Program-made: the position numbers and the translations under genes
The notes under the pieces: generated by a model
The model's database searches: none
What the model saw: only the letters and a program-made list of their open reading frames with translations
Told to the model about the DNA's origin: nothing
Sequence record: MN850625.1
DNA length: 41,110 nt
Strand: one strand, 5' to 3'
DNA from: Escherichia phage smaasur
Part shown: one piece after another, positions 4,635-41,110 of the stretch
Layout: the number at the start of each line of letters is the position of its first letter
How positions within the stretch are numbered: the first letter of the stretch is position 1

Positions 4635-5855
4635 TTAGTAGCCCATAGCCTTGGCTTGACGACGCTTCTCTACCAGCTCTTGGTAGTGACGGTTGTATTC
4701 CGGGGAACCAACCGGGTGCGCCTGCTCAAGCCAGCCAAGATGCTGACGGAAAGCCTCATTGGTCATCACCTCTTGAGGTGCTTGGCCGCCACCATTGGGC
4801 GTCAAACTCTGACCACTACGTTGAATCAGATTGCCTTGGGCACCAGTGAACTGGAGGATGGTGTTCACTGCCAGACGTACCTGATTCGGGTCGCCTGAGT
4901 TCACTGCTGCTACGACAGCATCGATAGTTGCAGGGTCTGCTGCGGTGTTGAATGCCTGTACTGCGAGGTTCCAACGCTGCTCGCCACCAGCCATCTGGTA
5001 CACCTGCTGCTCAATCTGCGCATCGCGCTGCTGCCCTGCTGCTACCAGCGCACCGAACTGTCCTTTCAGGATAGCTACGGTCTGCGGGTCGAACTGCGCA
5101 AGGTAACGGTCGTTCACCAAGGTCGGGTCGCGTCGCTCGTAAGCCTGACCGAACGCTGCAAGCAGGTCGATGTTCTGGCCACGGGCGATGGTATCCATGC
5201 CTTGGAATACTGCCTGACTGGTTTGGTCAGGGAAAATCTGTGCAACCTGCTCCGGCGTTAAACCTCCTTCCTGCTTAGCCAGCTTGTCAGCAGTGAGCTG
5301 CTGGTTCTGGATAGGCGGCTGCTGCTGCGGCTGCAACTGCTGGAAAGGTTGAGTCTGCTGCTGCGGCTGCTGAGGCTGCTGCTGATGCTGGCCCGGCTGA
5401 TGACCATACGGGTCGAAAGCATACGGCTGCGGTGCTACAGGCTGCTGGAACTGCTGAGCCGGAGCCGCTTGGCCCGGAGGCGTGTAGCCCTGTTGCGGAT
5501 ACCCATTAACCGGAATAGGTGGTGCCGCGTATGGCGACTGCGGTTGCTGAGAACCATACGGGTTCTGCTGAGGTACGGGTGCGTAAGGGCTTGGATTTCC
5601 CTGCGACTGGTTGGCATACGGGTTGTACTCCTGATTTGGAATCAGGCCCGGCTGCGCGAAAGGCTGCTGAGGCTGCGGAGTTGCGCCGCCGCGAGGCAGT
5701 TCAATCGGCGTACCTAAGCGACCAAGCGCTGGGTTCTGTACCACCTGTGGGCTTCCACCATAATCATTACCGCTGTGACCAGAGGGAGCATAGGTCGGGC
5801 CAGCGGGTACGTTTTGGGGAGCGGGTGCGGCAGTAGGTTGGTATTCACCTGACAT
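4635..5855 (-). CDS. scaffolding protein with a long Pro/Gln-rich low-complexity N-terminal region
   Basis: 406 aa between portal and capsid, the T7 gp9 slot. The first ~200 aa are extremely P/Q/Y/G-rich; the C-terminal half is ordinary composition. Confidence 0.6.
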   Translation of the reverse strand: MSGEYQPTAAPAPQNVPAGPTYAPSGHSGNDYGGSPQVVQNPALGRLGTPIELPRGGATPQPQQPFAQPGLIPNQEYNPYANQSQGNPSPYAPVPQQNPYGSQQPQSPYAAPPIPVNGYPQQGYTPPGQAAPAQQFQQPVAPQPYAFDPYGHQPGQHQQQPQQPQQQTQPFQQLQPQQQPPIQNQQLTADKLAKQEGGLTPEQVAQIFPDQTSQAVFQGMDTIARGQNIDLLAAFGQAYERRDPTLVNDRYLAQFDPQTVAILKGQFGALVAAGQQRDAQIEQQVYQMAGGEQRWNLAVQAFNTAADPATIDAVVAAVNSGDPNQVRLAVNTILQFTGAQGNLIQRSGQSLTPNGGGQAPQEVMTNEAFRQHLGWLEQAHPVGSPEYNRHYQELVEKRRQAKAMGY

Positions 5856-5865
5856 GTAATCTCCA

Positions 5866-7428
5866 TTAAATCTGTGCGACGTTCGGCGCTACATCGACTG
5901 CGCCCGGCTGTACGCCTGCGGCAGCGGCTGCTGCATTGTCGATGGCACGGCCTTCATTGGCCAAGTCTTGTGGTGACTTACGATAGTCATCCAGCGCGAC
6001 GCCGTTGGAAGCGAAGATAACCTCAAGGACTTTCTGTGGGTCGATGGTGTTAGCAACGCCGTTGATGTTCTGGACAGCAACCATTGCTGCCTGCGAATCT
6101 GAGAGCGCACGGATGAGCGTCTCTGCTTCGATACTGCGACCGAGGGCATCCAGACCTGCTTCGACTTGAAGGGATAGGATGTTGCCAACGATATCGGGTA
6201 CGGTGGACTCGTCAATCTCCGCGAGCAAGACGTACGCCAGAGGAATCTGGAGGGTCTTCGCCTGCATGGAATACGGGCCACCCAACCCGCGTTCGGCGCT
6301 GGTTGCTACCTGCTGCACTTCGGTTGCGGTGGTACGTTCGGAATCACGGAACTCACCAGTGTACATGAACGCCTGCGCGAGTCGCTGCACAATCTGGTTA
6401 ATTTCGTCACGAGCCTGTTGGACTTTCTGGTAATCCCCGACCTCCAGCCCCTCAAGTTGGGTGCCGGACTGTAGCGGAACCACCTGACCAGTCTCTGCGG
6501 ATTCGATATCGTCAGCGTTGCCGCCTGAGCCAGTCAGCTTCCACAGCACGCGCAAGGCTTCTTGCATGTACAGGGCACTGTGCTCACTCAGCATCGACAG
6601 ACGTGCGAAATCCCCAGCGTGGTCTTCGACAATCCCGCGACCATAATGCTCGCCAGACTTCAAAGACCACACTGGGAAAATCCAAGGGCAGACTTTTTCA
6701 GGGTAGTAATCCTTACCGGGGGTATAAACACAGCCTTGGTAGTTGCCCACCTGCTGCGTCACTTCATAGCCAAAGTTGTTCTGGCGCGGTACACGCTTGA
6801 CGCGAGTGTACAGCCAAATGCGTTTGTTGCCGCTGCAACGGAATCCCTTAGCTTCGAGCTGCTTCTGGAACTCCATAGGCAACGAATCCCACTGGATGCG
6901 CTCCTTGACGATTGCGTCCGTTACAACGCCACGACCGTCGCGCTGCACCACGAAGGATTCCAGACCGTACACACGGTACGTTCCAGTTTCCATATCGCGG
7001 TACAGCGCGGCGTTACCAGTCACGGCTTGCTGGGCAATACATTGGAGCAGGTCGGCATAACCACCGTTCTCTTTGGCTTTATCAACGATGGCTTTCTCAA
7101 TAGTGATGAGTGCCTGATTGACTTGCGACAGTTGCTGCCGCTGCTGTTCAGACACCTTGTTAAGTTTCAGCTTCACGAAACGAGCAGAAGCCGGGAACAG
7201 GAACTCGCCCAATCGAGCAACGAGGTTGTTGACGAGCAGAGCGCCGACAGATTGATAGTCACGAGTAATCTGCTGGCGGTTCATATCGTCCGTGTCAGCT
7301 CGGTCATACTCGCTCACCAGCTTAGCCAGTGTATAGCGGCTGTACTCACGAGCCTTCGTCACAACGTTGCTGTCCCGGTATTTCTGCCACAGAGACTCAT
7401 AGCTGACGTTCTGCGCGTCTTGGGTCAT
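5866..7428 (-). CDS. portal (head-tail connector) protein, T7 gp8-like
   Basis: 520 aa. Contains YRVYGLESFVVQRDGRGVV resembling recalled T7 gp8 YRLSSYVVQRDAFGNVL, and VEAGLDALGRS resembling T7 ISTGLEAIGRGQ. Directly upstream of the scaffold gene. Confidence 0.9.
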   Translation of the reverse strand: MTQDAQNVSYESLWQKYRDSNVVTKAREYSRYTLAKLVSEYDRADTDDMNRQQITRDYQSVGALLVNNLVARLGEFLFPASARFVKLKLNKVSEQQRQQLSQVNQALITIEKAIVDKAKENGGYADLLQCIAQQAVTGNAALYRDMETGTYRVYGLESFVVQRDGRGVVTDAIVKERIQWDSLPMEFQKQLEAKGFRCSGNKRIWLYTRVKRVPRQNNFGYEVTQQVGNYQGCVYTPGKDYYPEKVCPWIFPVWSLKSGEHYGRGIVEDHAGDFARLSMLSEHSALYMQEALRVLWKLTGSGGNADDIESAETGQVVPLQSGTQLEGLEVGDYQKVQQARDEINQIVQRLAQAFMYTGEFRDSERTTATEVQQVATSAERGLGGPYSMQAKTLQIPLAYVLLAEIDESTVPDIVGNILSLQVEAGLDALGRSIEAETLIRALSDSQAAMVAVQNINGVANTIDPQKVLEVIFASNGVALDDYRKSPQDLANEGRAIDNAAAAAAGVQPGAVDVAPNVAQI

Positions 7429-7692: not shown

Positions 7693-8111
7693 TACGGTTT
7701 CTCCAAATCAATGAATCGGTACTCCTGAACATAAGGACGTACCATGTGGGAGTAACCGCACCAGCGCAACCCAGCTTGCCGGGCAGCGCGTTTGAGTTCG
7801 CGGAGGATGAGACGGGTCACTCCCCGGTTGCGATACTGGGGCCATACATACATGGCCATTACAACGGCGCACGGCCCCACATGAATATCGAACAGCTCAC
7901 CGAGATGAGCACAGCCCATGAGAGCACCGTCAGAATCATGGACGTACACATCTGTGCATCCGTTGGCGGTGGCATCATACATGGCGTCCACTATCACATC
8001 CCACGGTAAATCAGACCATTGGCGTTCATCCTGTATACCTTTGGCTACAGCAGTCCGAATGTCGATTGGCATCGTGGTGTGATGTATGTTGTCCACAACA
8101 GTTACTTTCAT
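7692..8111 (-). CDS. GNAT-family N-acetyltransferase (putative)
   Basis: 139 aa. AVVMAMYVWPQYRNRGVTRLILRELKRAARQAGL fits the GNAT beta4-alpha3 acetyl-CoA-binding pattern. Start ATG sits inside the repeated element ATGAAAGTAACTGTTGTG. Overlaps the upstream small gene by 1 nt (TAATG). Confidence 0.5.
   Translation of the reverse strand: MKVTVVDNIHHTTMPIDIRTAVAKGIQDERQWSDLPWDVIVDAMYDATANGCTDVYVHDSDGALMGCAHLGELFDIHVGPCAVVMAMYVWPQYRNRGVTRLILRELKRAARQAGLRWCGYSHMVRPYVQEYRFIDLEKP
8097..8111 (-). repeat. repeated element ATGAAAGTAACTGTT (copy 1, at the GNAT start codon)
   Basis: Exact 15-mer on the minus strand; extends to 18 nt (ATGAAAGTAACTGTTGTG, 8094-8111) shared with copy 4. Confidence 0.6.
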
Positions 8112-8293
8112 TACACAGTCCTTTCACGGATGAAGTCCAACACGTCCTGTTTACCCGCTTCTCTGTTCAGTAGTGAGATATCTGATTCATGGGTGATGGT
8201 CTTCCCTACCTTCTCCCATGTACCGAATGCCTTCTCTAAGAGAGCTAGTTGTCCTTTGTTGAACGTCACTCTGTCTAATGGTGAGTCTTTCAT
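8111..8293 (-). CDS. small protein (60 aa from MKDSPL), translationally coupled to the downstream GNAT gene
   Basis: ORF track gives 8111..8311; the internal ATG at 8293 has a GGAGA ribosome-binding site, so I start it there. Predicted short beta-strand followed by helix (RVTFNKGQLALLEKAF). Confidence 0.4.
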   Translation of the reverse strand: MKDSPLDRVTFNKGQLALLEKAFGTWEKVGKTITHESDISLLNREAGKQDVLDFIRERTV

Positions 8294-8336
8294 AGAGAAT
8301 CTCCAATGCACTACGAGAGTAATCTGGGTATACCAG

Positions 8337-8351
8337 AACAGTTACTTTCAT
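8337..8351 (-). repeat. repeated element ATGAAAGTAACTGTT (copy 2, just downstream of the RNA polymerase gene)
   Basis: Exact 15-mer on the minus strand, 26 nt downstream of the RNAP stop and 44 nt upstream of the ATG at 8293. Confidence 0.6.
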
Positions 8352-8376
8352 TAAGTGCAAGAAATATAAGACTAAA

Positions 8377-10809
8377 TTAGCAGAAGAATTTGGAGGATTT
8401 CTTGACCTCGTTGATATCCAACTGGCCCCGTGCTGGAGCTTCCTTAGAATATCTCACGGCAAGTTGTTGAATCGGGTCATTTTCCTCGTACATCTGCACG
8501 AATTTTTCACGGATGACTTTGTGCAGTAGACCTGCATGAGCTGCTGCAACACCGAACGAGTCATGAATGGATACCATGTACACCCCGTTATTCCACATCT
8601 CCCACAGGACTTTCGTCATGTGGCTGGCATCCATCGCATGTACAAAATTCGGAGCAATCGCAGCCGCGCATTTGCGACCGTCTGGCTTGTCGATGAACTC
8701 ACGCAGCTTGATGGCATGAACGCCCATCAGCTTGATACCCATAGTGGTCTCTTTGTGAGCCTGATACATGTTCACCACACGCAGACCAGACGGGGCAGTG
8801 AACTCCACATACTCACCGTTAGCCGCCGCCTCAGATGCGATAGCTTGCAGCCATGCCATCAGCTCAGCAGCCTTTGGCACCACGCGAGGAATTGCATCCC
8901 ACATGAACCCGGCGATGTACATTGCGCACTGGAACAGGGTGTACCCTTCCGGTAGCGGAGTGTTGTGCTCCCGTAAATACAGCGCATAGTAATCCACCAT
9001 GCCGTGGCGTGTCGCACCGTACACATAAGTCATCACAGGCTTCTTAGCCATACCGCGCTCTATGCCAGTCTGTATGAGCCACGAACCCAAGACAGTAGGG
9101 TTGGTTGCCTCTGCTTCCTTCAACGCCTCCAGAGCCGCCGTAGCGGTCTTAACGTAGATGTCTGCCTTACGTCCTACTGAATCAATCAGGTTAACCGCAG
9201 CCCCGCCCACCTCGTCACGCAGCATTGCTGAGAGATGTTGCAGACCTGAGCACGTCGCGTCCCACTGTGTCACCACACGGCACGGATACTCTTCCGGGTT
9301 CCCGCTATCCAGCGCACGCACCAGCTCTACCGCAGCCGCCCATGCACACAGTGGGCTGTCAGCCTCAGACCAGAATGAGTCGTATGCCTCTGGCAGACGG
9401 CAAGCCTCGCGCAGTCGCGGCATTGTCTTGTCCGTCCATGCCGCCCGGTCTTCAAAGTCTGTGGAGTCATAGCCGAAGCAGTTGGCCACATGAACCTTCA
9501 ACCAGAACAGACCCTCCTTACCAAGCGGCACCGGGTCAGCCAGCTCAAGCAAAGCACGAATCGCGTCAATGCCTTGCGGGTTCAGGGATGTGGCATAGTA
9601 GCAACGGCCACGAGTGTCGGCGTATGTCGGCAGGTAGATTCGCTCGTACACTTTGTACTGCTCAGCCTCACGCAGCGCACTGCTCAGCGCCTGAATCTGC
9701 GTGGTGAACTTCTTCATGTCGTTGTGGTAAATGCGAGTCTTAACCTTGAACTCGTGCGCCTCAGCGTCCATGCGCTGCTGCATCTCAGCCGGGAACTTGC
9801 TGATGTACTGGCCGAACGTTACGCCTTCCGGGATAGTGAACGGCAGCTTAGGCTCCACTGGAGCAACAGGCAACCCCATCACCCCGGTTCTGTTGGCTTG
9901 TAAGAACTCCAGCACCATCTTGTTCACGCGGAACGGAACGTTTGACAGCATCATGCACGGCTCAATCATCGGTCGTGGGTCAATACCTAACTTGCGATAC
10001 GCCGGGTGCTTGAGCTTGCTGATTACCGCATACGTTGCCGCCTGCCCCGGAGAGTGCCACATACCGCCAAAGCCATTCGCACTGATTTGAGCTGGCGGTA
10101 TAATCAGCGGCGGGTAGCAACTGATGCCGAGGTGTGGCAGCTTCATCCAATCCTCAAGCATGATGAGCACATCGTCATGCAGAGCGAAGTGCGCAGTCGC
10201 CCGGTTCTTCAAGCTACCGCCCACTCGGACAGTCTTGACCAGACCAGTCGGCTCGACAGCACGCATCATCAACTTGCCGATTGTGATGAGCGCACGCTGT
10301 GGCAGGCTTTCAATCTCGACACCAACATTTGCCGAGGCAGCGCGTGCCTTGTTGTAGATGTGGTTTGGCGACTTAGACTTGGACTTATTCACGTCGCGGC
10401 GAACCCTCTCCATATACGCAGCCTCACGCTTACCAGCCCGCTCAGCTCGTGCATAGACTACCTCAGCCATCATTGCCTGCCCCATCTCGCGGAGCAGTTG
10501 AGTCACGGCGGTACGCCCGGTCGCGCCGGACACCGCCATGCTCAGGGCCAGAGACGCGCAGGTCTTGGCCCCGACTTCACGAAGGTACGTGCGGTACTGC
10601 GCACCGAACCCACGAGTAGTTTCGTTCAGGATATCCAGCATTGCAGCTTCGACAGTGGGGTATGCCTCAACCATCGCTCGCTGCAACAGTGGCACCGCCG
10701 AGGCGCGGCCTGAGTCTATCGCATCTCGTACGTTATCTAACCAGCCTGCCCGGTGACGGGCACGCGCCTCTTCTTCCAGTCGAATCTGTTCTGCCAGCAA
10801 ATCCATCAC
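8377..10809 (-). CDS. T7-like single-subunit DNA-directed RNA polymerase
   Basis: 810 aa. [20 protein letters not shown] matches T7 RNAP motif A region [32 protein letters not shown]...SIHDSFG matches T7 motif C region PNFVHSQDGSHL...IHDSFGT. Confidence 0.95.
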   Translation of the reverse strand: [810 protein letters not shown]

Positions 10810-19662: not shown

Positions 19663-20927
19663 CACATATCCTCGAATTGACATTTATCAGCATAGAAGTG
19701 AACCTGCGAACGGACGTTGGACGGACGCCCAGCTATCTGCCGCTTGTTCTTAGGAGTGCTCACGCCGCGCCGCGCTGCCAGCGCCGGGTCGTAAACGGAA
19801 CCCAGCATGACAATCACATCGGTCGCACCTTGGATACCAGTCTTGGAATCCTTGAGTGCGTCCAGCGCGGGGAACATATCGTCGGCACCGTCTGCGGATA
19901 CCTGAACCGTAGCCAGCGATACGAAGTCATGACGTACCGCCAGCTCACGTACCTCCTGCCAGAGCTGCTCGACTTGGCTGGCCTTGTTGCTGTTAGCGTC
20001 AGCCACAGACAACTTGAAGTTTGCCAGCATATCCCACACCACGATGCAGGGATTCATTGCTTCAATCACCTGCTCCGCTTTGGCCAACGTCGCGCCGTGC
20101 ATGTCCTTCACACGGATGATGTTGGCCGGGGCATTCAACGCCTTCGCGTACTTCTCATGCAGCTTCTTCCTGTCGGCACCCAGTGCTTTTAACTCCGGGA
20201 GCGTACAGCCGAGCGCCGCTTGGTAGATGCGCGGGATGATGTTGATGCCCTGCCCTTCGTTGTTGAACCATAAGATTGGTCGGCCCGGATACAGCTTCGC
20301 TGCTGTCGCCGCCATTCTCGTAAGGTTAAACGCGATGAAGGAAGTCTTGCCACTGTCGGGTCGAGCGCCGATTGCAACGGAGTCACCGGGGAGAAGTACC
20401 CTAACGCTATCTTGCAGACACATGAGACCGAACTTGAAACCTTGGTCATCATCTGTCCGATTGATAATATCAACCACATCATCATCAACGTAATCAGTGA
20501 CAGATGACTGCCCTCGACTGCGGCGTGCGCCTTCTGCAAGGCGGCCCAGCTCATAGATGAAATCAATCTCATCGCCATTGTCGTACCTCTGTGCAAGGAG
20601 GTTAACCTTGCCTGCTGTATCCAGCTCGACTAACTGGTCGATGATGCCTTCGGTCTGCTGCTTCGTCGGCTGGTATTCCTTGAGCTGCTGGCATAGCGAT
20701 TCGAACGCAGCCATCTGCTCCGGTGTACTCCCAGTCTTGAGCCGGACGTGTGTGCCTAGCGTTTCCATATCCACGTAGTCTGAATCCGGGAACGCCTCGA
20801 AGTATGAGCCATACGCACGCAGCATGTAGCCTGTGGTCTGACTCATAGTGTCCTCTGGAATGGCATGGCGCAGGGAGTTATACTTCCCGCGCTCACGCAT
20901 GACAGAGAGCAACAGTTTGTCTAACAC
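19662..20927 (-). CDS. DnaB-like (SF4) replicative DNA helicase
   Basis: 421 aa. Walker A GARPDSGKTS; Walker B-like IVVWDMLANF; RecA-like core. No zinc-finger or primase domain in this ORF. Confidence 0.8.
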   Translation of the reverse strand: MLDKLLLSVMRERGKYNSLRHAIPEDTMSQTTGYMLRAYGSYFEAFPDSDYVDMETLGTHVRLKTGSTPEQMAAFESLCQQLKEYQPTKQQTEGIIDQLVELDTAGKVNLLAQRYDNGDEIDFIYELGRLAEGARRSRGQSSVTDYVDDDVVDIINRTDDDQGFKFGLMCLQDSVRVLLPGDSVAIGARPDSGKTSFIAFNLTRMAATAAKLYPGRPILWFNNEGQGINIIPRIYQAALGCTLPELKALGADRKKLHEKYAKALNAPANIIRVKDMHGATLAKAEQVIEAMNPCIVVWDMLANFKLSVADANSNKASQVEQLWQEVRELAVRHDFVSLATVQVSADGADDMFPALDALKDSKTGIQGATDVIVMLGSVYDPALAARRGVSTPKNKRQIAGRPSNVRSQVHFYADKCQFEDM

Positions 20928-22099: not shown

Positions 22100-22296
22100 T
22101 TAATCCACCCCCGGTTCTGGCCTACACTCAGGCTCAACTGCATCAGACCCCAGCCTACCAGCATACCGAGCAGCGTGCCCAGTGTTGAGGTGGCTGACTC
22201 ACCGACCGCAGGGATAAGCACCAGTGATGCAAGACCCACCCACAATGCTCCCCAAATAATTATCAGAAGCAGGAACAACAATATTACTTTGAGCAT
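22093..22296 (-). CDS. small membrane protein (two predicted transmembrane helices)
   Basis: Start placed at ATG 22296 (MLKVILLFLLLIIIWGALWVGLASLVLIPAVG...), preceded by GGAGGAGA. The ORF track's longer frame begins further upstream and includes the repeated ATGAAAGTAACTGT element at 22318-22332. Confidence 0.45.
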   Translation of the reverse strand: MLKVILLFLLLIIIWGALWVGLASLVLIPAVGESATSTLGTLLGMLVGWGLMQLSLSVGQNRGWIKW

Positions 22297-22317
22297 ATCT
22301 CCTCCGATGTTGTGCAA

Positions 22318-22332
22318 TACAGTTACTTTCAT
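22318..22332 (-). repeat. repeated element ATGAAAGTAACTGTa (copy 3, 14/15 match)
   Basis: On the minus strand, 22 nt upstream of the ATG at 22296 of the small membrane protein gene. Confidence 0.55.
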
Positions 22333-23279: not shown

Positions 23280-23576
23280 TTATTTACCTTTTACTTTACG
23301 GATAGAGAACTTGTCATTCTCGTAGGCGTAGAACTCATACTCAGGAGCATGGCCTGCCTTCGTAACGACCAGTCGTTTGCCATCATACTCGACGGCACCG
23401 ATGCGTTGCACGTAGCCAGAGTACGCTACGATGTAGTCACCAATTTCCAGTTGCTCACTGGTCTTGGTCACGTACTCGAACGGCTCAGGGTCTGCAACTT
23501 CCACGCGCTGCGGTGGTGGGCCGAAGCTATCCTTCACCCACTGAACCAACGCATCCCACTTAGCACTTCTGCTCAT
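23280..23576 (-). CDS. hypothetical protein (99 aa from MSRSAKW)
   Basis: Start moved to ATG 23576, which has a GGAGGAAAGAGAGG ribosome-binding site and lies 1 nt after the upstream TAG. Confidence 0.45.
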   Translation of the reverse strand: MSRSAKWDALVQWVKDSFGPPPQRVEVADPEPFEYVTKTSEQLEIGDYIVAYSGYVQRIGAVEYDGKRLVVTKAGHAPEYEFYAYENDKFSIRKVKGK

Positions 23577-23577
23577 A

Positions 23578-23862
23578 CTATACCTCTCTTTCCTCCAGCC
23601 ATTGTTGCGCGGCTGCATACGCATCTTCATAACTTACGAAGCCGTCGAACTCATCGCCGTTCGGTGCGAGGAAACACCAGTCGAGATGTACATGTGGGTT
23701 GCCCTTCGAGAAGATTACGCAGGGGAATACACCGCCGACCGAGTGACCGCGCAGGCCGCCGTTACCAGCGCAGTGACCAAGCGTTGCGGCTACACCACGC
23801 AGATGCTCAGCCTCCCGGATTGCGCTGGCTTGTTCGATAATTGTTTCTGATGCCAGTACCAT
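23578..23862 (-). CDS. hypothetical small protein
   Basis: 94 aa ORF in the early block. Confidence 0.4.
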   Translation of the reverse strand: MVLASETIIEQASAIREAEHLRGVAATLGHCAGNGGLRGHSVGGVFPCVIFSKGNPHVHLDWCFLAPNGDEFDGFVSYEDAYAAAQQWLEEREV

Positions 23863-24024
23863 ATCGCTACCCTCTCATTAAATAATACTCGTGGTGCATG
23901 TAGTGACCGCCGAGATACACCGCCCGGCTGAACAGGTTGGGGTTGCTCGCCCCACCCAGCGCACAGTAACCAGCGTACGTTATCTGATTAGCGTGCGCAT
24001 TGTACGTGCTGCCGCCCATGCTCA

Positions 24025-24360
24025 TCACTCCCGCTCAGCTATGCCGAACAGATACATGTCGCCAGAGTACACTGTCGTCATGGTCGCCAGCCATTGCTGC
24101 ATGATGCGAACGCTCGCATTGAAGTGCTGGTCATTCAGCAGGTCAATGATAAACGGACGGCCACCAGCGTACGCCTTGACTCGCTCTATTATCTGCTGGT
24201 CAGTGGCATCCTCAGCAGTGAGGTGATGCCCCATGATTTCAAACTGGTTGAATACAACCAGACCTTCGCGGCCATCAGGCAGGAGGTAGACGAAAGCCAC
24301 AACGTGCTCGCCATCCTCAAAGTCCTTGCCGCGTTTGATGAGTACCTTGTGAATGGCCAT
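24025..24360 (-). CDS. hypothetical small protein
   Basis: 111 aa ORF; start abuts the upstream stop at 24363. Confidence 0.45.
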   Translation of the reverse strand: MAIHKVLIKRGKDFEDGEHVVAFVYLLPDGREGLVVFNQFEIMGHHLTAEDATDQQIIERVKAYAGGRPFIIDLLNDQHFNASVRIMQQWLATMTTVYSGDMYLFGIAERE

Positions 24361-24362
24361 AC

Positions 24363-24626
24363 TTACTCCACTTCGAAGTCGCCGTCGTCGTCGTAGCCGT
24401 ACCCCAGTACGCCAGCCAGTTCGCCGTTAACACCTTCGGCCTGCGCCTCATCAAACAGGACGATGAAGTCATCATCATCGGACGCCAGACCACGGTACAC
24501 ATCTGCATCCGGGTGCGCATCGAATACAGGCAGGCTCTTACCAGTATCGCCACGGTACACGACCACACCTACAGCGTTGCCGAACCATCTTGACTTAACG
24601 CGCTGACCTAATTCTAATTTGCTCAT
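24363..24626 (-). CDS. small acidic protein (N-terminal GQRVK motif, Asp-rich C-terminus)
   Basis: Start placed at ATG 24626 (MSKLELGQRVK), which has a GAGGA ribosome-binding site. C-terminus DDDDFIVLFDEAQAEGVNGELAGVLGYGYDDDGDFEVE is strongly acidic. Confidence 0.5.
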   Translation of the reverse strand: MSKLELGQRVKSRWFGNAVGVVVYRGDTGKSLPVFDAHPDADVYRGLASDDDDFIVLFDEAQAEGVNGELAGVLGYGYDDDGDFEVE

Positions 24627-24663
24627 GTTAATATCCTCAAATGGATGGGGCAGGATTGCCATA

Positions 24664-24687
24664 AAGCCAGCGCCGGAACACTGGCTT
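24664..24687 (-). promoter_or_regulatory. intergenic RNA hairpin (7-bp stem AAGCCAG/CTGGCTT, 10-nt loop)
   Basis: Perfect inverted repeat read directly from sequence, between the stop at 24703 and the start at 24626. Confidence 0.4.
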
Positions 24688-24702
24688 GAGTCAATCCCGC
24701 TA

Positions 24703-26837: not shown

Positions 26838-27369
26838 AGTTATTTCTCCAGTTATTGGCTATTTTCAGGTGGATAGTGAACCCATTGTGACGCGCCGTAC
26901 AGTCTGCACTCAGTGGCATTGATTGGCTTGTCGGATTCACTACCCTGAAAAATCGCCCCGCCCATTTCGCGCTGTGGATATTGTCTGCATCCACTCTCAG
27001 GAGTCTTCCAGCAGTCCGTCGCGTATCTTGCTCACCGTTGCCAGCTAACAAGCCGTTTGACTACCCACCCGCTATACTCCGCGCCTTATAAGACGTTCGG
27101 GATTGTACTGATACTGCGCTGCGTCTATCGCGCTTCTCCGTTCCCATGCACCGGGCGCTACCCCTATTGCCTTTCGGCGGTGCCTCACCCAGTTCCAACC
27201 TGCGGCGGATACCCAGTGAGCCGTGACACTACGCGGCCAGTTTGCGTTCACTCAGAGCAGGATGCTTTCCATCCTTTCAACTCGGTGCTGATTTCATCAT
27301 ATCTGAATCAGCTTGTCAACTACTTTTTACTTCTGACTGACTGGCTTGCTACCCGTCAATCTGGAGCGT

Positions 27370-27398
27370 ATTACAGCATACTCATTTCACCTTGTCAA
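27370..27398 (-). promoter_or_regulatory. candidate host sigma70 early promoter (minus strand TTGACA-17-TGTAAT)
   Basis: On the minus strand: TTGACA (plus 27393-27398), exact 17-nt spacer, TGTAAT (plus 27370-27375). Points toward the early genes. Confidence 0.5.
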
Positions 27399-27506
27399 CC
27401 GTTTTATTCAGCGCCCATTCTGAGATGAATAACCCGTACCAGTTCGCCTGCGTGTGTTTTAACGTCTTTATCAATGACTGTTTAGCTTGCTGGCTGACGT
27501 GGAAGC

Positions 27507-27535
27507 ATTACAGCATAGTGAGCTTGCCTTGTCAA
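27507..27535 (-). promoter_or_regulatory. candidate host sigma70 early promoter (minus strand TTGACA-17-TGTAAT), second copy
   Basis: Same architecture: TTGACA (plus 27530-27535), 17-nt spacer, TGTAAT (plus 27507-27512). A weaker third candidate is TTGACA (27313-27318) with TGAAAT (27290-27295). Confidence 0.5.
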
Positions 27536-27779
27536 TACACTCCAGATTGTTAAAGAGCATGGCTAACCGTCTAGCCCACCGTGTAACGATGTTCTGTTAC
27601 CCGGCGATGAGAATTACAGCAAATCACAAAGAGCATTGCAAGTATTATTTTCACTGAATACCTCAAATAGTGGATAAGTTATTGTATTCATTGATAATAA
27701 ATATTTGATTGAATAGGTTATTGCATAGCTTACATACAGCAGAATAACCGTAAATAAATCCTTTTAAATCAATGAGTAA

Positions 27780-27794
27780 ATGAAAGTAACTGTT
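27780..27794 (+). repeat. repeated element ATGAAAGTAACTGTT (copy 4, inverted, at the edge of the T-depleted terminus tract)
   Basis: Exact 15-mer on the plus strand, opposite to all genes; 18-nt identity with copy 1 (ATGAAAGTAACTGTTGTG). Sits at the junction between an AT-rich segment (27640-27780) and the T-depleted tract. Confidence 0.6.
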
Positions 27795-27799
27795 GTGTA

Positions 27800-28380
27800 T
27801 AGCAGTAGCGATACGCAGCGTAAGCGACGCAGCACGCAGTGCGATAGCGGAGCGCGGAGCGGAGCGAATGAGATACGGAGTAGCGAATGAGTGAACGCGA
27901 ACGGATAGCAAGTATCAGAGTGTTACACAGTACACACAGCAGACACACAGCGACGCGATGAGCTGGAGGAGCTGGAGCGCAGGCGGTAGCGCACAGAGTA
28001 CACCGTACACAGTACCGCACAGACACACACAGCAAGCGAGCGCAGGCAGCAGCAGCAACGCACAGAGCAAGCGAGCAAAAGAGATAGATAGCCCCGCGCC
28101 CAGCCACCGACACACAGCAGCACCGCACAGCACAGCGCAGGCCAGCGCAGGCGCGTCCAGTGGTAGCAGTGGCGCAGCGCACAGCAGCAGGACACAGCAC
28201 CGCACAGCACGCCACACGGCAGACGATGAAACGGGCACGCGCGAGCTGTTACCGCACGCACGCGAGCAATACCGCACGCGCAGGCACACGCGCATAATGC
28301 GCACACGTCATGCACGCGCACGCGCACAGGCGTACGGGGGCGCAGGCGCTCCTTCGGGTCGAGGGAGGCCCACGCACAAA
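27800..28380. repeat. strongly T-depleted, degenerate short-repeat tract at the presumed genome terminus
   Basis: Plus strand is almost entirely A/C/G with reiterated CACAG/GCGCAG/CAGCAC units; my hand count gives about 8% T over 27841-28380, and 28021-28080 has none. Lies between the last late gene (endolysin, ends 28435) and the early promoters, where T7-like phages carry terminal repeats and short-repeat arrays. Confidence 0.6.
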
Positions 28381-28434
28381 TAGTCAATTTTCAAGCCGGG
28401 AAACGCCTGTTCTATGTCACAGCTTTCAATGCCC

Positions 28435-28971
28435 CTATAACGTCGCACAGTAAGCGCTACAGCGTTTTGCACGAGCAACCAAGGCATCCCTATACCGAAC
28501 GATTGTCGGGGCTGTAGAAGCCTTTAGGAACGCAATACGAAGGTCACAGATGGATGCTGCTGCGGAGTGAGGTTCCAGACGTTTGGCTGCTGCCACGGTT
28601 GCAGGGCCAATAACCCCGTCTTGTGCAACGCCGCATACCCGCTGTAGAGCTTTCGCCGCACGGCTGATACCGGAGTTGACACCGTAGTCGAACACGGCAC
28701 ATGCAATCGCAGGGTGTAGCTCGTCACCTTTGATGGGGTCGAAATACTCGGCCCGGTAGATAGCGTTGGCTTGCTCTTTGGTGAGCTGTTTGACAGGCAC
28801 ACAAATAGAGCCACCAAGCCCAGTAGGGACACCACAAATTCGGCCATCCAGTTTGCCATCACGAGCATCGCTAATTCCATGATTCGTTTCCCCTCCAGTG
28901 TCACCGGGCAGCTTGGTGTACCCGCCTTCTGCCAGCCCGGTGAACTTCATACAGATTTCAAAGTTAGTCAT
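28435..28971 (-). CDS. endolysin, glycoside hydrolase family 108-like with C-terminal peptidoglycan-binding region
   Basis: 178 aa. N-terminal FTGLAEGGYTKLPGDTGGETNHGIS matches the GH108 signature (EGGY...DxGGxTxxGI) as I recall it. Last gene before the terminus region. Confidence 0.7.
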   Translation of the reverse strand: MTNFEICMKFTGLAEGGYTKLPGDTGGETNHGISDARDGKLDGRICGVPTGLGGSICVPVKQLTKEQANAIYRAEYFDPIKGDELHPAIACAVFDYGVNSGISRAAKALQRVCGVAQDGVIGPATVAAAKRLEPHSAAASICDLRIAFLKASTAPTIVRYRDALVARAKRCSAYCATL

Positions 28972-38238: not shown

Positions 38239-40931
38239 TCCTGCATACCTGCGAGTAGAGTTTGGATGTAATACTGCTTGCGTTCATCCTGAGACAGCTT
38301 GAACGCCGGGGTATTGGACAGTGCCTGCAACGCCTGCTCCCGGTCGCCGACGCGGATTGCATCAGCCAGCTTGCCATAAGCACCGCCAGAGCGATACCAA
38401 TCGGAGCCAGCCTGATAGCCCATCTGCATCATGAACTGGAACTGAGCGTCTTTGTCACGGCTCCAACCGAGCGCTGCTGCCTGACCGGGCATCTGCCGGG
38501 CAACCATGTTCGTGTGGTTCACGAACGTGTCGTGGATAGTGCGCGGAGACCACTCCGTGCCGCCCTTCATACCAGAAGCCTGACCTTCTGCAAAGTACGG
38601 GCTGCGGTTAGAGATGCCGACACCGTTGGTCTGGACACCAGTGCTGTCACGGTACGTCTGGTTACGGATACCCTCGAACTCAATCAGCTTGCCACGAGCC
38701 TGCAACATGTAGGACTCTTCCACACCTGCGGTATTGACACCGTTGACGCGGATACCGATGTTGCTGTTCTTATCGACAAAGAGTTTCCCGTCGCCGTAGA
38801 CTTCGTTGTTCGCGGTAGCCGCCGCCCGGTCATCTTCACGGATGCGCTCCTGAATAGCCTGCGGAGTAATCCGGTAGCTGTTCGGAGATACGTCACCTGT
38901 CTTGTTGAAGTATTGAACGTTGAGCGAACCATCGGGCATAAACGAGTACGACGTCTCGAAACCTTCTGGTGCCTTGCTCTGGTCAAGTGAGGCGATAGCA
39001 CGACCGATACGGTCAGGTGCCACGTCAGCAGGCAAGCCAAGCATAGACTGAACAGTTTGGTTTCTCGGAGCGATAAGCACACTGCCGGGGCTGAAAGTAG
39101 ACTCACCCACACGCAGCACGCGGTTTGCCAGCTTCGCAGACGCGAGCGCTTCCATACCGTCTTTCGTGATGTTCGGGTTCTTGAGGACAACAGCTTGCAA
39201 CTCTTCGCGGTACGCGGCAGACACCTCCGACATTTCCTGCGCAGCAGTAATGTCACCAGATGCGACGCGAGCTTGGAACAGGTTGCGCTGAGTGTCTGAG
39301 AACAGACCAGCCAGACCTTGCCAAGTGCGAGAGAAGAAGCCCTGTGCTTCAAGGGAGCCTACCACACTGTTAACGTCAGATTGACGCTGAGTGAGGATTT
39401 GGGATTTCTGAGCTGGGGTTAAGCCAGCGTAATCCTGCTGCTGCTTAATGTAACCCTGACCCGCTTGGTTGATGGTACGGCCAGCCTTAATCTGCTCGCG
39501 CATGTACACCATCTTCTCTTGGTTTTCCTCTGACAGACCAGACAGGAGCTTAGTCCATGCGGTCTTGTCACCCTGATTCTCGGCCACGGTTACGCGGTCA
39601 ATCAGCCCGGTCACTGTAGCGGCAGCGTCCGGGTTCATCTCGTCCACTGTGCCGAAGTTCGATAGGGCTGGCTCAATCAGTTTCGCAGCAGACTTGTACG
39701 CAGAAGGGAAGCCAGTCTGTGCGCCAACTTGCAGCAGGTCGAATGCCACGGAGCTTGCCGTCGCGCCCGGCTGCTTCATGCGAGCTTTGATGAATGCGTC
39801 AGCACCATCCTGCTCACTCGCACCCTGCTGGAGCATGTACGTCTGGTTCCCGGTGGCGTATGCCTGACCGAGCTGGTTGGCCTTCGCTTGCTTGGCGTAG
39901 TCCTTGTAATAGCCCTCAATAGCAGAGCTGTAACCAGACGCAGAGATGAGTTTGTTATCTGCGAGCTGCTGGAGGATACCAGTGTACGTCTTAGGGTCTA
40001 CGTCTCCGAAGACTGCCTGACGTGCATTGAGCTGGCCGTACTGCTCCAGCAACCCCATGTTGTCCTGAACCTCGGTGCGGTTCTTCGATTCACGAATCTG
40101 GCCTTGGAGTTTGGCCAAATCATCAGCAGGCAAGTCGTTGAACATCCCGGAGTTAACGGCGGTCTCCACCGGGGTGCGGAGGTCTTGCGACAGCATGTTG
40201 CTCATCATGGACACGACTTGAGTGCGCCGGGTTTCCAGCGGCAACTTCTCATCGGCCAGAATGGATTTGGCCCATGCCATCGTTGCAGCAGTAGCGTTAG
40301 CGTACGCGCCGCCGTCACCCGTTGCCTTGGCCTGAGCAGCCAGAGTAACGAGAGTGTTACCCTGTGCATTGTACATAGAAGCACGCTGCTCAATCAGGTA
40401 CTTGCCGTGCTGAGCAGCCTGCGTACGAATCAGCGTATTGCTGAACGTGAGCTGATTCTCCAGCAGCGCCTTACGACCATTCATGGTCATACCATCAGTG
40501 TTGTTGAAGATGCTCTGCGTCTTCTGGTCAACAACTTTCAGGAAGTCCTGCGGAGACATTTTCGCGTACTCGGTCATGTTGGCCGAGATATCAGAGGCAG
40601 CCTGAGCCATCTGCATACGCTTGTACTGGTCGTTATAACCAGCCTTGTGGAACTCGGCAGTCAGCCAGTTGGAGTCCAAATCCTCCACAGCTTGGCCGGA
40701 CGCTGCCGCGTTCGCACCTTTCAGATACTCTTCCTCAACCGCACGCTCAGTAACCTGACCAGCGATGTTGCTGGCCATGTTCATGATGCGCTGGATGGAC
40801 TCAGTAGGAAACGTGTCAATGCGAGTATCGCGGCCTGCGAGACTGAACGGAGTCTGAGCCTGCTGCACATTTGGTACGCCCTGCTGCGCAGCGTTAAGGT
40901 TAGCGCCACGCTGGTCACGCATAGTTGCCAT
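38235..40931 (-). CDS. internal virion protein B (T7 gp15-like by position)
   Basis: 898 aa with GGGAGC ribosome-binding site, upstream of the 1033-aa protein. As I recall, phiKMV gp36 is also 898 aa and has a C-terminal lysozyme domain; that is recollection, not verified here. Confidence 0.6.
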   Translation of the reverse strand: MATMRDQRGANLNAAQQGVPNVQQAQTPFSLAGRDTRIDTFPTESIQRIMNMASNIAGQVTERAVEEEYLKGANAAASGQAVEDLDSNWLTAEFHKAGYNDQYKRMQMAQAASDISANMTEYAKMSPQDFLKVVDQKTQSIFNNTDGMTMNGRKALLENQLTFSNTLIRTQAAQHGKYLIEQRASMYNAQGNTLVTLAAQAKATGDGGAYANATAATMAWAKSILADEKLPLETRRTQVVSMMSNMLSQDLRTPVETAVNSGMFNDLPADDLAKLQGQIRESKNRTEVQDNMGLLEQYGQLNARQAVFGDVDPKTYTGILQQLADNKLISASGYSSAIEGYYKDYAKQAKANQLGQAYATGNQTYMLQQGASEQDGADAFIKARMKQPGATASSVAFDLLQVGAQTGFPSAYKSAAKLIEPALSNFGTVDEMNPDAAATVTGLIDRVTVAENQGDKTAWTKLLSGLSEENQEKMVYMREQIKAGRTINQAGQGYIKQQQDYAGLTPAQKSQILTQRQSDVNSVVGSLEAQGFFSRTWQGLAGLFSDTQRNLFQARVASGDITAAQEMSEVSAAYREELQAVVLKNPNITKDGMEALASAKLANRVLRVGESTFSPGSVLIAPRNQTVQSMLGLPADVAPDRIGRAIASLDQSKAPEGFETSYSFMPDGSLNVQYFNKTGDVSPNSYRITPQAIQERIREDDRAAATANNEVYGDGKLFVDKNSNIGIRVNGVNTAGVEESYMLQARGKLIEFEGIRNQTYRDSTGVQTNGVGISNRSPYFAEGQASGMKGGTEWSPRTIHDTFVNHTNMVARQMPGQAAALGWSRDKDAQFQFMMQMGYQAGSDWYRSGGAYGKLADAIRVGDREQALQALSNTPAFKLSQDERKQYYIQTLLAGMQE

Positions 40932-40933
40932 GA

Positions 40934-41110
40934 TTAGCTCCCAAAGATGTTACCAGAGCCATAACCCAAGTAACGATTAGAATCATACTGCGCTGGCACA
41001 GGGTTAAATTCCCCGGCCTTCTGCATCCAATTGGTGGTGCTGTAACTGGCAGACGTTCCGAGATTGTCGAACGTCGATGCTGTAGCACCTGAGCCACCAG
41101 TCGTACCAGC
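40934..41110 (-). CDS. C-terminal end of an upstream virion protein gene (gene begins beyond window end)
   Basis: In-frame minus-strand reading with no stop from 41110 to the TAA at 40934-40936 (...NRYLGYGSGNIFGS*). Probably the small internal virion protein; may be the same gene whose 5' end is at 1-558 if the source contig is circularly permuted. Confidence 0.4.
   Translation of the reverse strand, partial: AGTTGGSGATASTFDNLGTSASYSTTNWMQKAGEFNPVPAQYDSNRYLGYGSGNIFGS

Follow-up and report, generated by a model that had tools for sequence, protein, structure and literature searches.

An inverted copy of a putative phage polymerase promoter faces the left genome end in Bonnellvirus

Why does a phage whose genes all run in one direction carry a promoter-like element that points the other way, toward the end of its genome? 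This question is raised by the 41,110-nucleotide sequence of Escherichia phage smaasur (record MN850625.1; the whole of this stretch is called the window below). A preliminary description of the window had noticed a repeated element in four copies, the fourth of which lies on the plus strand at position 27780, and had proposed that this copy, if the element is a promoter, would fire outward toward the presumed left physical end. Here, we bring together comparative evidence suggesting that the 18-bp element, ATGAAAGTAACTGTnnTG, is probably a promoter of the phage polymerase and that the copy at 27780-27797 is probably a working backward promoter, with the terminal repeat on one side of it and the early, host-type promoters on the other. 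The window is a Bonnellvirus genome (Autographiviridae, with phiKMV-like gene order) that is circularly permuted and reverse-complemented; coliphage J8-65 matches it with 96% identity over 25 kb. All real genes of the window lie on the minus strand, and the copy at 27780 does stand opposite to every one of them.

The repeated element and the phage RNA polymerase

We searched the window for the 14-mer ATGAAAGTAACTGT and found exactly four exact copies, at 8351, 8111 and 22332 on the minus strand and at 27780 on the plus strand. When up to two mismatches were allowed, the same four sites and no others were recovered, compared to 0.17 expected from dinucleotide-preserving shuffles, none of which reached four; the next-best site in the window carries three mismatches. 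Over the full length of the element, the copies share 17-18 of 18 positions. The plus-strand copy, ATGAAAGTAACTGTTGTG, has 18 nt in common with the copy at 8111 (19 when the preceding A is counted), and these two copies form the arms of an inverted repeat of 26 nt with 88% identity (pair I1). The exact search and the inverted-repeat pair thus bear out the family as it had been described, including its fourth, plus-strand member with 18 shared nucleotides.

The three forward copies, all on the minus strand, occupy classic promoter positions, directly after the polymerase gene and ahead of the primase block. The proposed reader of the element is a single-subunit RNA polymerase of 810 aa, whose gene (8377-10809, minus strand) was recognized by homology to J8-65 gp28. 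Copy A (8334-8351) lies 26 nt downstream of the stop codon of this gene, copy B (8094-8111) follows 240 nt past copy A and 266 nt after the polymerase stop, and copy C (22315-22332) comes after a 7-bp hairpin (GTGGCAT...ATGCCAC), upstream of the gp11-gp12-primase-helicase block. This arrangement parallels promoters P007 and P008 of Pseudomonas phage LUZ19. Likewise, the GenBank record of phage LIMEzero carries a "putative phage specific promoter" after the polymerase gene and again after the terminator that precedes the primase gene, matching copies A and C.

We then compared 11 Bonnellvirus genomes, the window included, after rotating them to a common origin, which gave 33 sites, three per genome. 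The preliminary description had reckoned with the possibility that the element is absent from the termini of related phages; instead, the inverted copy was present in all 11 genomes, 589-734 nt after the endolysin stop, and each genome also had forward copies, which follow the polymerase gene and precede the primase block. According to bases 8-10, the element falls into four sequence classes: TAA (the window, J8-65 and Lidtsur), TGT (megetsur, BHUENT7 and Ec1-ASingh), CTA (Kc261 and usur) and TGA (RZ4, glasur and ROV85). These three bases are identical across the sites of one genome in 32 of the 33 sites, and in eight genomes the inverted copy equals the copy after the polymerase gene at 18 of 18 positions. 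A CTATAG core, i.e., the -5 to +1 core of the T7 promoter, is found in eight of the 11 genomes, those of the classes to which the window does not belong, while the cores in the window read CTGTTG (copy B and the inverted copy, D), CTGTTC (copy A) and CTGTAT (copy C). Element position 18 is a G in 31 of the 33 sites. The inverted copy is unannotated in the Bonnellvirus records examined, and the literature examined on this genus yielded no mention of promoters and no transcriptome or biochemistry.

In T7 RNA polymerase, residues 746 and 748 contact the specificity bases of the promoter. In the Bonnellvirus polymerases, the segment aligned with the specificity loop of T7 varies with the promoter class and reads GIK..A, NIN..S, NIN..G or HLH..Q (positions aligned to T7 746, 748 and 754). 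When CTA-class polymerases were compared with the approximately 90%-identical polymerases of the TGT and TGA classes, nine of 25 loop columns were substituted, against approximately 9-10% overall (p ~1e-4 to 4e-4, a comparison partly confounded with phylogeny); for the other pairs of promoter classes, the enrichment of substitutions in the loop was not significant. Together, the positions of the copies, their conservation in 11 genomes, the co-variation of the classes and the specificity-loop classes suggest that the element is the cognate promoter, and we consider it very probable that it belongs to the phage's own T7-type single-subunit RNA polymerase. Judged from its bases, the inverted copy is a full-strength member of this promoter family, and it is quite probably active leftward in vivo. 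The idea that it points outward to the left physical end, as first proposed, gains support from its position, from its co-variation with the forward copies and from a transcript-mapped counterpart in LUZ19.

The left end of the genome and the predicted leftward transcript

The physical end of the genome was located through J8-65, which was deposited as a linear sequence with an annotated repeat_region, a direct terminal repeat (DTR) of 259 bp (1-259 and 40723-40981) whose two copies are identical. Both repeat boundaries were mapped onto the window: nucleotide 1 of J8-65 falls at window position 28362 and the inner repeat boundary at approximately 28102. By this homology, the window holds one collapsed copy of the DTR at 28102-28362, and we infer the physical left end at 28362. 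Read in gene sense, the left end then begins at 28362 and runs through the DTR to approximately 28102 and through approximately 300 nt of A-depleted DNA to the inverted element (27797-27780). Past the element follow a 140-bp AT-rich spacer, three sigma-70-like early promoters (27535-27291) and the first gene, which encodes a SAM hydrolase homologue. The inverted copy had been placed at the genome terminus; it does lie near the left end, but approximately 570 nt inside it rather than exactly on it.

Base composition changes at the element. The segment on one side, 27640-27779, is 75% A+T, whereas the sequence downstream is approximately 63% G+C and poor in T, in keeping with the earlier observation that the copy marks the boundary of an AT-rich segment and a T-depleted tract. 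Between 27795 and 28362, the plus strand has 8.3% T (corresponding to 47 U in 568 nt) and 61% purine overall, with 64-68% purine in the first 300 nt. The equivalent tracts contain 6.5-9.4% T in all 11 Bonnellvirus genomes, and outside the terminal region of the window (27400-28500) no base drops below 13% in any stretch of 300 nt. When the element was aligned with the T7-type CTATAG core of the relatives and with the end of the LUZ19 motif, the predicted transcription start fell at G27795 or G27797. The T-depleted tract starts at this predicted position and stops at the inferred physical end. From its composition and the mapped J8-65 end, we delimit a predicted leftward non-coding transcription unit, T-depleted and U-poor, at 27797-28362 on the plus strand.

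If the element works as proposed, the polymerase, once made in middle to late infection, would start at approximately G27795-27797 and transcribe leftward, and its product would be a non-coding, U-poor, purine-rich and unstructured RNA. On the mature linear genome, the polymerase would run off the left end after approximately 566 nt. On concatemers, transcription would pass through the terminal repeat and go on into the next genome unit, where it would run antisense to the lysis genes, as in LUZ19. Simple scans revealed no plus-strand intrinsic terminator between the inverted promoter and the endolysin gene; between 28300 and 36000, two weak plus-strand matches to a hairpin with a T-run (29325 and 32580) were no more than shuffled sequences gave and are uninformative about where the transcript ends on concatemers.

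We also considered what kind of RNA this could be. A search of the tract against Rfam returned no meaningful match (E of at least 0.58, to eukaryotic miRNA and snoRNA families, all on the opposite strand), and the leftward RNA folded no better than shuffled sequence (z = +0.5); on these two results, a structured non-coding RNA was rejected. A sponge for CsrA was dropped as well, since approximately 10 GGA were counted by eye compared to approximately 17 expected from base composition in a hand estimate, i.e., no enrichment. Chi-site decoys would, in the active orientation, need GCTGGTGG on the T-poor strand, which its two T's make unlikely, an argument made by reasoning only, with no search for the site. 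One may speculate that the U-poor skew removes termination signals for the leftward polymerase or, equally speculatively, that it clears restriction sites from the part of the genome that enters the cell first.

The inverted element also opens an ATG-initiated open reading frame (ORF) of 36 aa on the plus strand (27780-27890; MKVTVVYSSSDTQRKRRSTQ...). We confirmed this ORF where it had been reported, and J8-65 has one of equal length, 36 codons. That it represents a genuine plus-strand gene for a 36-residue protein is nevertheless extremely unlikely. The ATG corresponds to positions 1-3 of the element, which are invariant in 33 of 33 sites, intergenic ones included, and it lies upstream of the predicted transcription start (element position 16-18, 27795-27797). 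The length of the ORF is not conserved, amounting to 36, 36, 7, 7, 27, 34, 7, 7, 34, 34 and 27 codons in the 11 genomes, and no Shine-Dalgarno or GGAG-like sequence occurs in the AT-rich 20 nt upstream of the ATG. Since every stop codon contains T and this strand has only 8% T, long ORFs arise here by composition alone. On these grounds, a protein-coding gene was rejected for the short plus-strand ORF described earlier; the ATG and the 36 codons would be by-products of the promoter sequence and of stop-poor composition.

The same features bear on the annotation of these genomes. ORFs of 129-154 aa are present in several frames on both strands of the skewed tract (27769-28387), and "hypothetical protein" coding sequences (CDSs) have been annotated in the equivalent tracts of Lidtsur (41053-41460), Kc261 (41017-41556), glasur (41898-42374) and ROV85 (23520-24700); these are very likely false genes. 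In J8-65, the annotated start of gp11 (5664-5903) is the ATG of promoter copy C, but another ATG lies in frame 36 nt downstream and has a strong ribosome-binding site, GGAGGAGATATG (both in window 22296-22332, minus strand). The gene probably starts 12 codons later than annotated. Gene callers are probably misled by the stop-free tract and by the promoter ATGs, and false CDSs or wrong start codons are very likely in several records.

A further conserved feature was found at the inner boundary of the terminal repeat. The sequence TATCTATCTCTTTT (28077-28090, minus strand) is similar to ATCTGTT, the class II pause signal that T7 has at its concatemer junction (CJ). On the gene strand, this CJ-like element reads TATCT(G/A)TCT(C/T)TTTT. 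All 11 Bonnellvirus genomes have it, 12 nt inside the inner boundary of the DTR, and eight of them have TATCTGTCTCTTTT with the T7 pause-signal core TATCTGT. A terminator scan flagged the same site, 28077-28090, as terminator-like. In T7, the ATCTGTT sequence starts at nt 161, right after the 160-bp terminal repeat, and this CJ signal, which maturation requires, makes the polymerase pause at the junctions of concatemers. By analogy, late rightward transcription probably pauses or terminates at the CJ-like element when it reaches a concatemer junction. The junction region thus seems built to stop rightward late polymerases, and the backward promoter lies approximately 290 nt further in.

Several other features were recorded around the left end. 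The J8-65 left end falls inside a motif that recurs across genera, GGGCCTCCC/TCGACCC (window 28355-28370, with the slash marking the end); LIMEzero has GGGCCTCCCTCGAC at nt 33-47, in a record that appears to begin approximately 40 nt upstream of the motif, and LUZ19 begins with CCCTCCCGAC (nt 1-10). This motif is probably the terminase cutting site. The AT-rich spacer (27640-27779), which separates the leftward phage promoter from the early host-type promoters that fire rightward, is kept as a block in the relatives. In most of them it contains a direct repeat of approximately 21 nt, ATAAGTTACTGTAATCATTAG, twice (e.g., in megetsur-type genomes, 40560-40680 in L004), while a single diverged copy was recognized in the window at 27671-27700; this repeat does not co-vary with promoter class and may be a protein-binding site. 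The three putative early promoters (TTGACA...TGTAAT) form a family of direct repeats (D7) on the minus strand at 27507-27535, 27370-27398 and 27291-27319. They are also kept in megetsur, but they were not called in a simple promoter scan of the window and remain putative. Finally, BHUENT7, an unverified assembly, contains a 121-nt tandem duplication that includes the CJ-like element (rotated positions ~340-461 after the endolysin stop) and could be real or an assembly artefact.

Possible roles of leftward transcription

What might leftward transcription achieve at this place? Our tentative preference is for a boundary, insulator or antisense function as its main role, ahead of replication priming or packaging, although we hold even this reading to be possible rather than probable. 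Leftward transcription would mark and insulate the border between genome units: polymerases starting at the inverted promoter would meet, head-on, the late rightward polymerases that read through the junction, and the promoter would act together with the CJ-like pause element at the inner repeat boundary while antisense RNA is laid over the junction.

A number of observations weigh against this interpretation or against the promoter on which it builds. In T7 and KP34, the promoter at the same spot points rightward into the early genes, so there is no general need to keep the phage polymerase out of the early genes. Promoter identity in Bonnellvirus is founded on comparative evidence and analogy, and the loop enrichment is significant only when the CTA class is involved. 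The core of the window copy, CTGTTG, departs from canonical CTATAG, and two of the four window copies have no G at the position aligned to T7 +1, which leaves the start uncertain by approximately 2 nt. Moreover, the U-poverty of the transcript is left unexplained by the boundary, origin and packaging readings alike.

It is also conceivable, but doubtful, that the inverted promoter serves as a replication origin, its purine-rich transcript staying stably hybridized to the A-poor template DNA and priming leftward leading-strand synthesis. In this reading, divergent transcription from it and from the early promoters would also open the 140-bp AT-rich spacer for loading of the helicase-primase, much like a T7 origin in reverse orientation. 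In T7, polymerase promoters (phi1.1A/B and phiOL) together with AT-rich DNA serve as origins, and several features here recall this: the promoter abuts a segment of 75% A+T, the RNA-like strand is hybrid-prone with its 61% purine (64-68% in the first 300 nt), the leftward RNA is purine-rich also in LUZ19 and LIMEzero, and phiOL occupies the equivalent position in T7. However, the promoter fires away from the AT-rich segment 27640-27779, which lies upstream of it, whereas T7 origins fire into AT-rich DNA; an arrangement more like the primary origin of T7 exists after the polymerase gene, where two promoters stand 240 nt apart in DNA of 44% G+C; and the GC skew of the tract is near zero overall. 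Mapping an origin from GC skew was uninformative because all genes are co-oriented. A role in concatemer processing or packaging seems unlikely to us: leftward transcription would open or mark the single repeat copy for the terminase cut and for repeat duplication. The stretch covered by the transcription unit is exactly the one that begins at the promoter, takes in the terminal repeat and ends at the cut site. The conserved CJ-like element stands at the inner repeat boundary just as the signal of T7 does, and T7 maturation needs T7 RNA polymerase and its pause at the CJ site. Antisense transcripts of LUZ19, moreover, cross to the right genome end. Yet the CJ-like signal, being strand-specific, is oriented against rightward polymerases rather than against those that start at the inverted promoter, and in T7 and KP34 the ends mature with no leftward promoter present.

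The resemblance to a promoter could also be incidental, with the element being the site of another phage or host DNA-binding protein, or a site at which the polymerase binds without firing. The departure of the window core from T7-type CTATAG would suit such a site, but this explanation is very unlikely given the classic promoter positions, the co-variation with the polymerase specificity loop, the T7-type core in sister phages and an inverted promoter mapped at the same genomic position in LUZ19. A broader proposal, which we would not count as probable, treats the backward promoter and the U-poor, purine-rich tract as one device kept in at least four phiKMV-like genera, in which a phage-polymerase transcript, held in a persistent RNA-DNA hybrid over the terminal repeat, would prime DNA synthesis as a terminal origin or open the single junction repeat for duplication and cutting. 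If true, these linear genomes would use transcription to solve the problem of replicating and maturing their ends, in a way distinct from that of T7. Whichever role the leftward transcript has, it should be directly testable in J8-65-type phages on E. coli K-12 via one 18-bp element.

The region of the two tandem forward copies also deserves mention. Window positions 8001-8500, right after the polymerase gene, form the stretch of lowest G+C in the coding part of the window (44%) and hold two phage promoters 240 nt apart. The primary replication origin of T7 consists of phi1.1A/B and AT-rich DNA after gene 1, and by analogy 8001-8500 is a candidate primary origin. The ATG of copy B is at the same time the start codon of the gp30 homologue, which is called a GNAT acetyltransferase in Lidtsur. 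A class-matched promoter at the start of the gp30 homologue is found also in RZ4, glasur and ROV85, and LIMEzero has the same overlap (nt 20742, ORF36). Transcripts from copy B would begin inside the gp30 homologue and serve the downstream structural genes.

Counterparts in other phages

T7 offers a parallel in phiOL, which, like the inverted copy, is a phage-polymerase promoter in a non-coding stretch between the CJ-bearing repeat and the early host promoters. The T7 left end comprises the repeat (1-160), ATCTGTT (161), phiOL (405) and A1 (498), and in Bonnellvirus the distance from the CJ-like element to the promoter is approximately 260-300 nt. Whereas the Bonnellvirus copy is leftward, phiOL fires to the right, into AT-rich DNA and the early genes, and the T7 left end is not A-depleted (30% A). 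PhiOL is a secondary replication origin of T7, and the origin promoters phi1.1A/B fire rightward into AT-rich DNA. T7 also has a leftward promoter near its left end, A0 (nt 224), which resembles the Bonnellvirus copy in having no known gene to express; however, A0 is read by the host polymerase, hence early rather than late, and has no sequence relation to the Bonnellvirus element. Era103, with its SP6-like character and early polymerase gene, was left out of the comparison.

In KP34 (Drulisvirus), the polymerase promoter has been experimentally defined as TAATGTTACAGGAGTA (PMC6834552). One copy lies in the non-coding region near the left end, as in Bonnellvirus, at nt 475 after a 216-bp repeat. 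Unlike the inverted copy, it is forward, and the A-depletion upstream of it is weaker (15.8% A). LIMEzero (Waewaevirus) and LIMElight (Limelightvirus) each carry an inverted copy of their own motif on the minus strand, TGAAGGCAAGCACTAAGGA at nt 654 in LIMEzero and ..GACGTTATAGAGTGA at nt 549, after a 277-bp repeat, in LIMElight. Their GenBank records annotate forward copies at the positions of copies A and C but not the inverted copies, and the LIMElight site is labeled as host promoters. The sense-strand A content between the left end and the left-end promoter was compared across five lineages in all: it is 8.1% in the window (27795-28362), 6.7% in LUZ19 (nt 1-730), 12.2% in LIMEzero (nt 45-635) and 7-19% in LIMElight (nt 100-500), whereas T7 (30%) and KP34 (15.8%), whose left-end promoters are forward, have little or no A-depletion. 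The A-depletion of the tract being read is strong in LUZ19 and Bonnellvirus and moderate in LIMEzero and LIMElight.

The phage-specific promoters of phiKMV-like phages have long been hard to find, and none is annotated in the Bonnellvirus records examined. What our analysis adds is the proposal of four natural promoter/polymerase specificity classes within Bonnellvirus, the extension of the backward-promoter architecture to three further genera and its consistent coupling to a U-poor transcription unit, and a T7-CJ-like element at the repeat boundary. Four specificity variants with paired loop changes, in a tractable group of phages of E. coli K-12, would be useful as orthogonal polymerase-promoter pairs.

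The closest known system is LUZ19, a Pseudomonas phage of the genus Phikmvvirus, in which ONT-cappable-seq revealed four phage-specific promoters with a shared 20-bp motif, two of them directly downstream of the polymerase gene (PMC10914365). Its antisense promoter P001 was mapped by the same method, with antisense transcripts that reach the rightmost genome end over gp47-gp49, and near-identical motifs, the antisense copy included, were present at matching positions in 15 other Phikmvvirus species screened (Putzeys et al. 2024, PMC10914365). The authors proposed that the antisense promoter may prevent elongation into the early genes (PMC10914365). Searching the LUZ19 sequence for the motif, we found P001 at nt 748 on the minus strand, between the 472-bp repeat (1-472) and the sigma-70 promoters at 913-1182. 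P001 and the Bonnellvirus copy agree in that both are members of a forward-promoter motif family, stand antisense to all genes between the repeat and the early sigma-70 promoters, read into a tract depleted of A on the sense strand, are conserved genus-wide and are accompanied by two forward copies after the polymerase gene. They differ in that the motifs are unrelated apart from (T)ATG at about -15 (GgtTATGTCACacACAnnGG in LUZ19 compared to ATGAAAGTAACTGTnnTG here), in that LUZ19 belongs to another host and lineage (Pseudomonas; Krylovirinae), and in that the LUZ19 promoter has been transcript-mapped whereas the Bonnellvirus copy is known from sequence. On this comparison, the inverted element is the Bonnellvirus counterpart of P001, a promoter already known in another genus. 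The antisense left-end promoter of LUZ19 would thus be no peculiarity of its genus, and would instead represent a conserved part of the genome end in Bonnellvirus, Waewaevirus and Limelightvirus as well.

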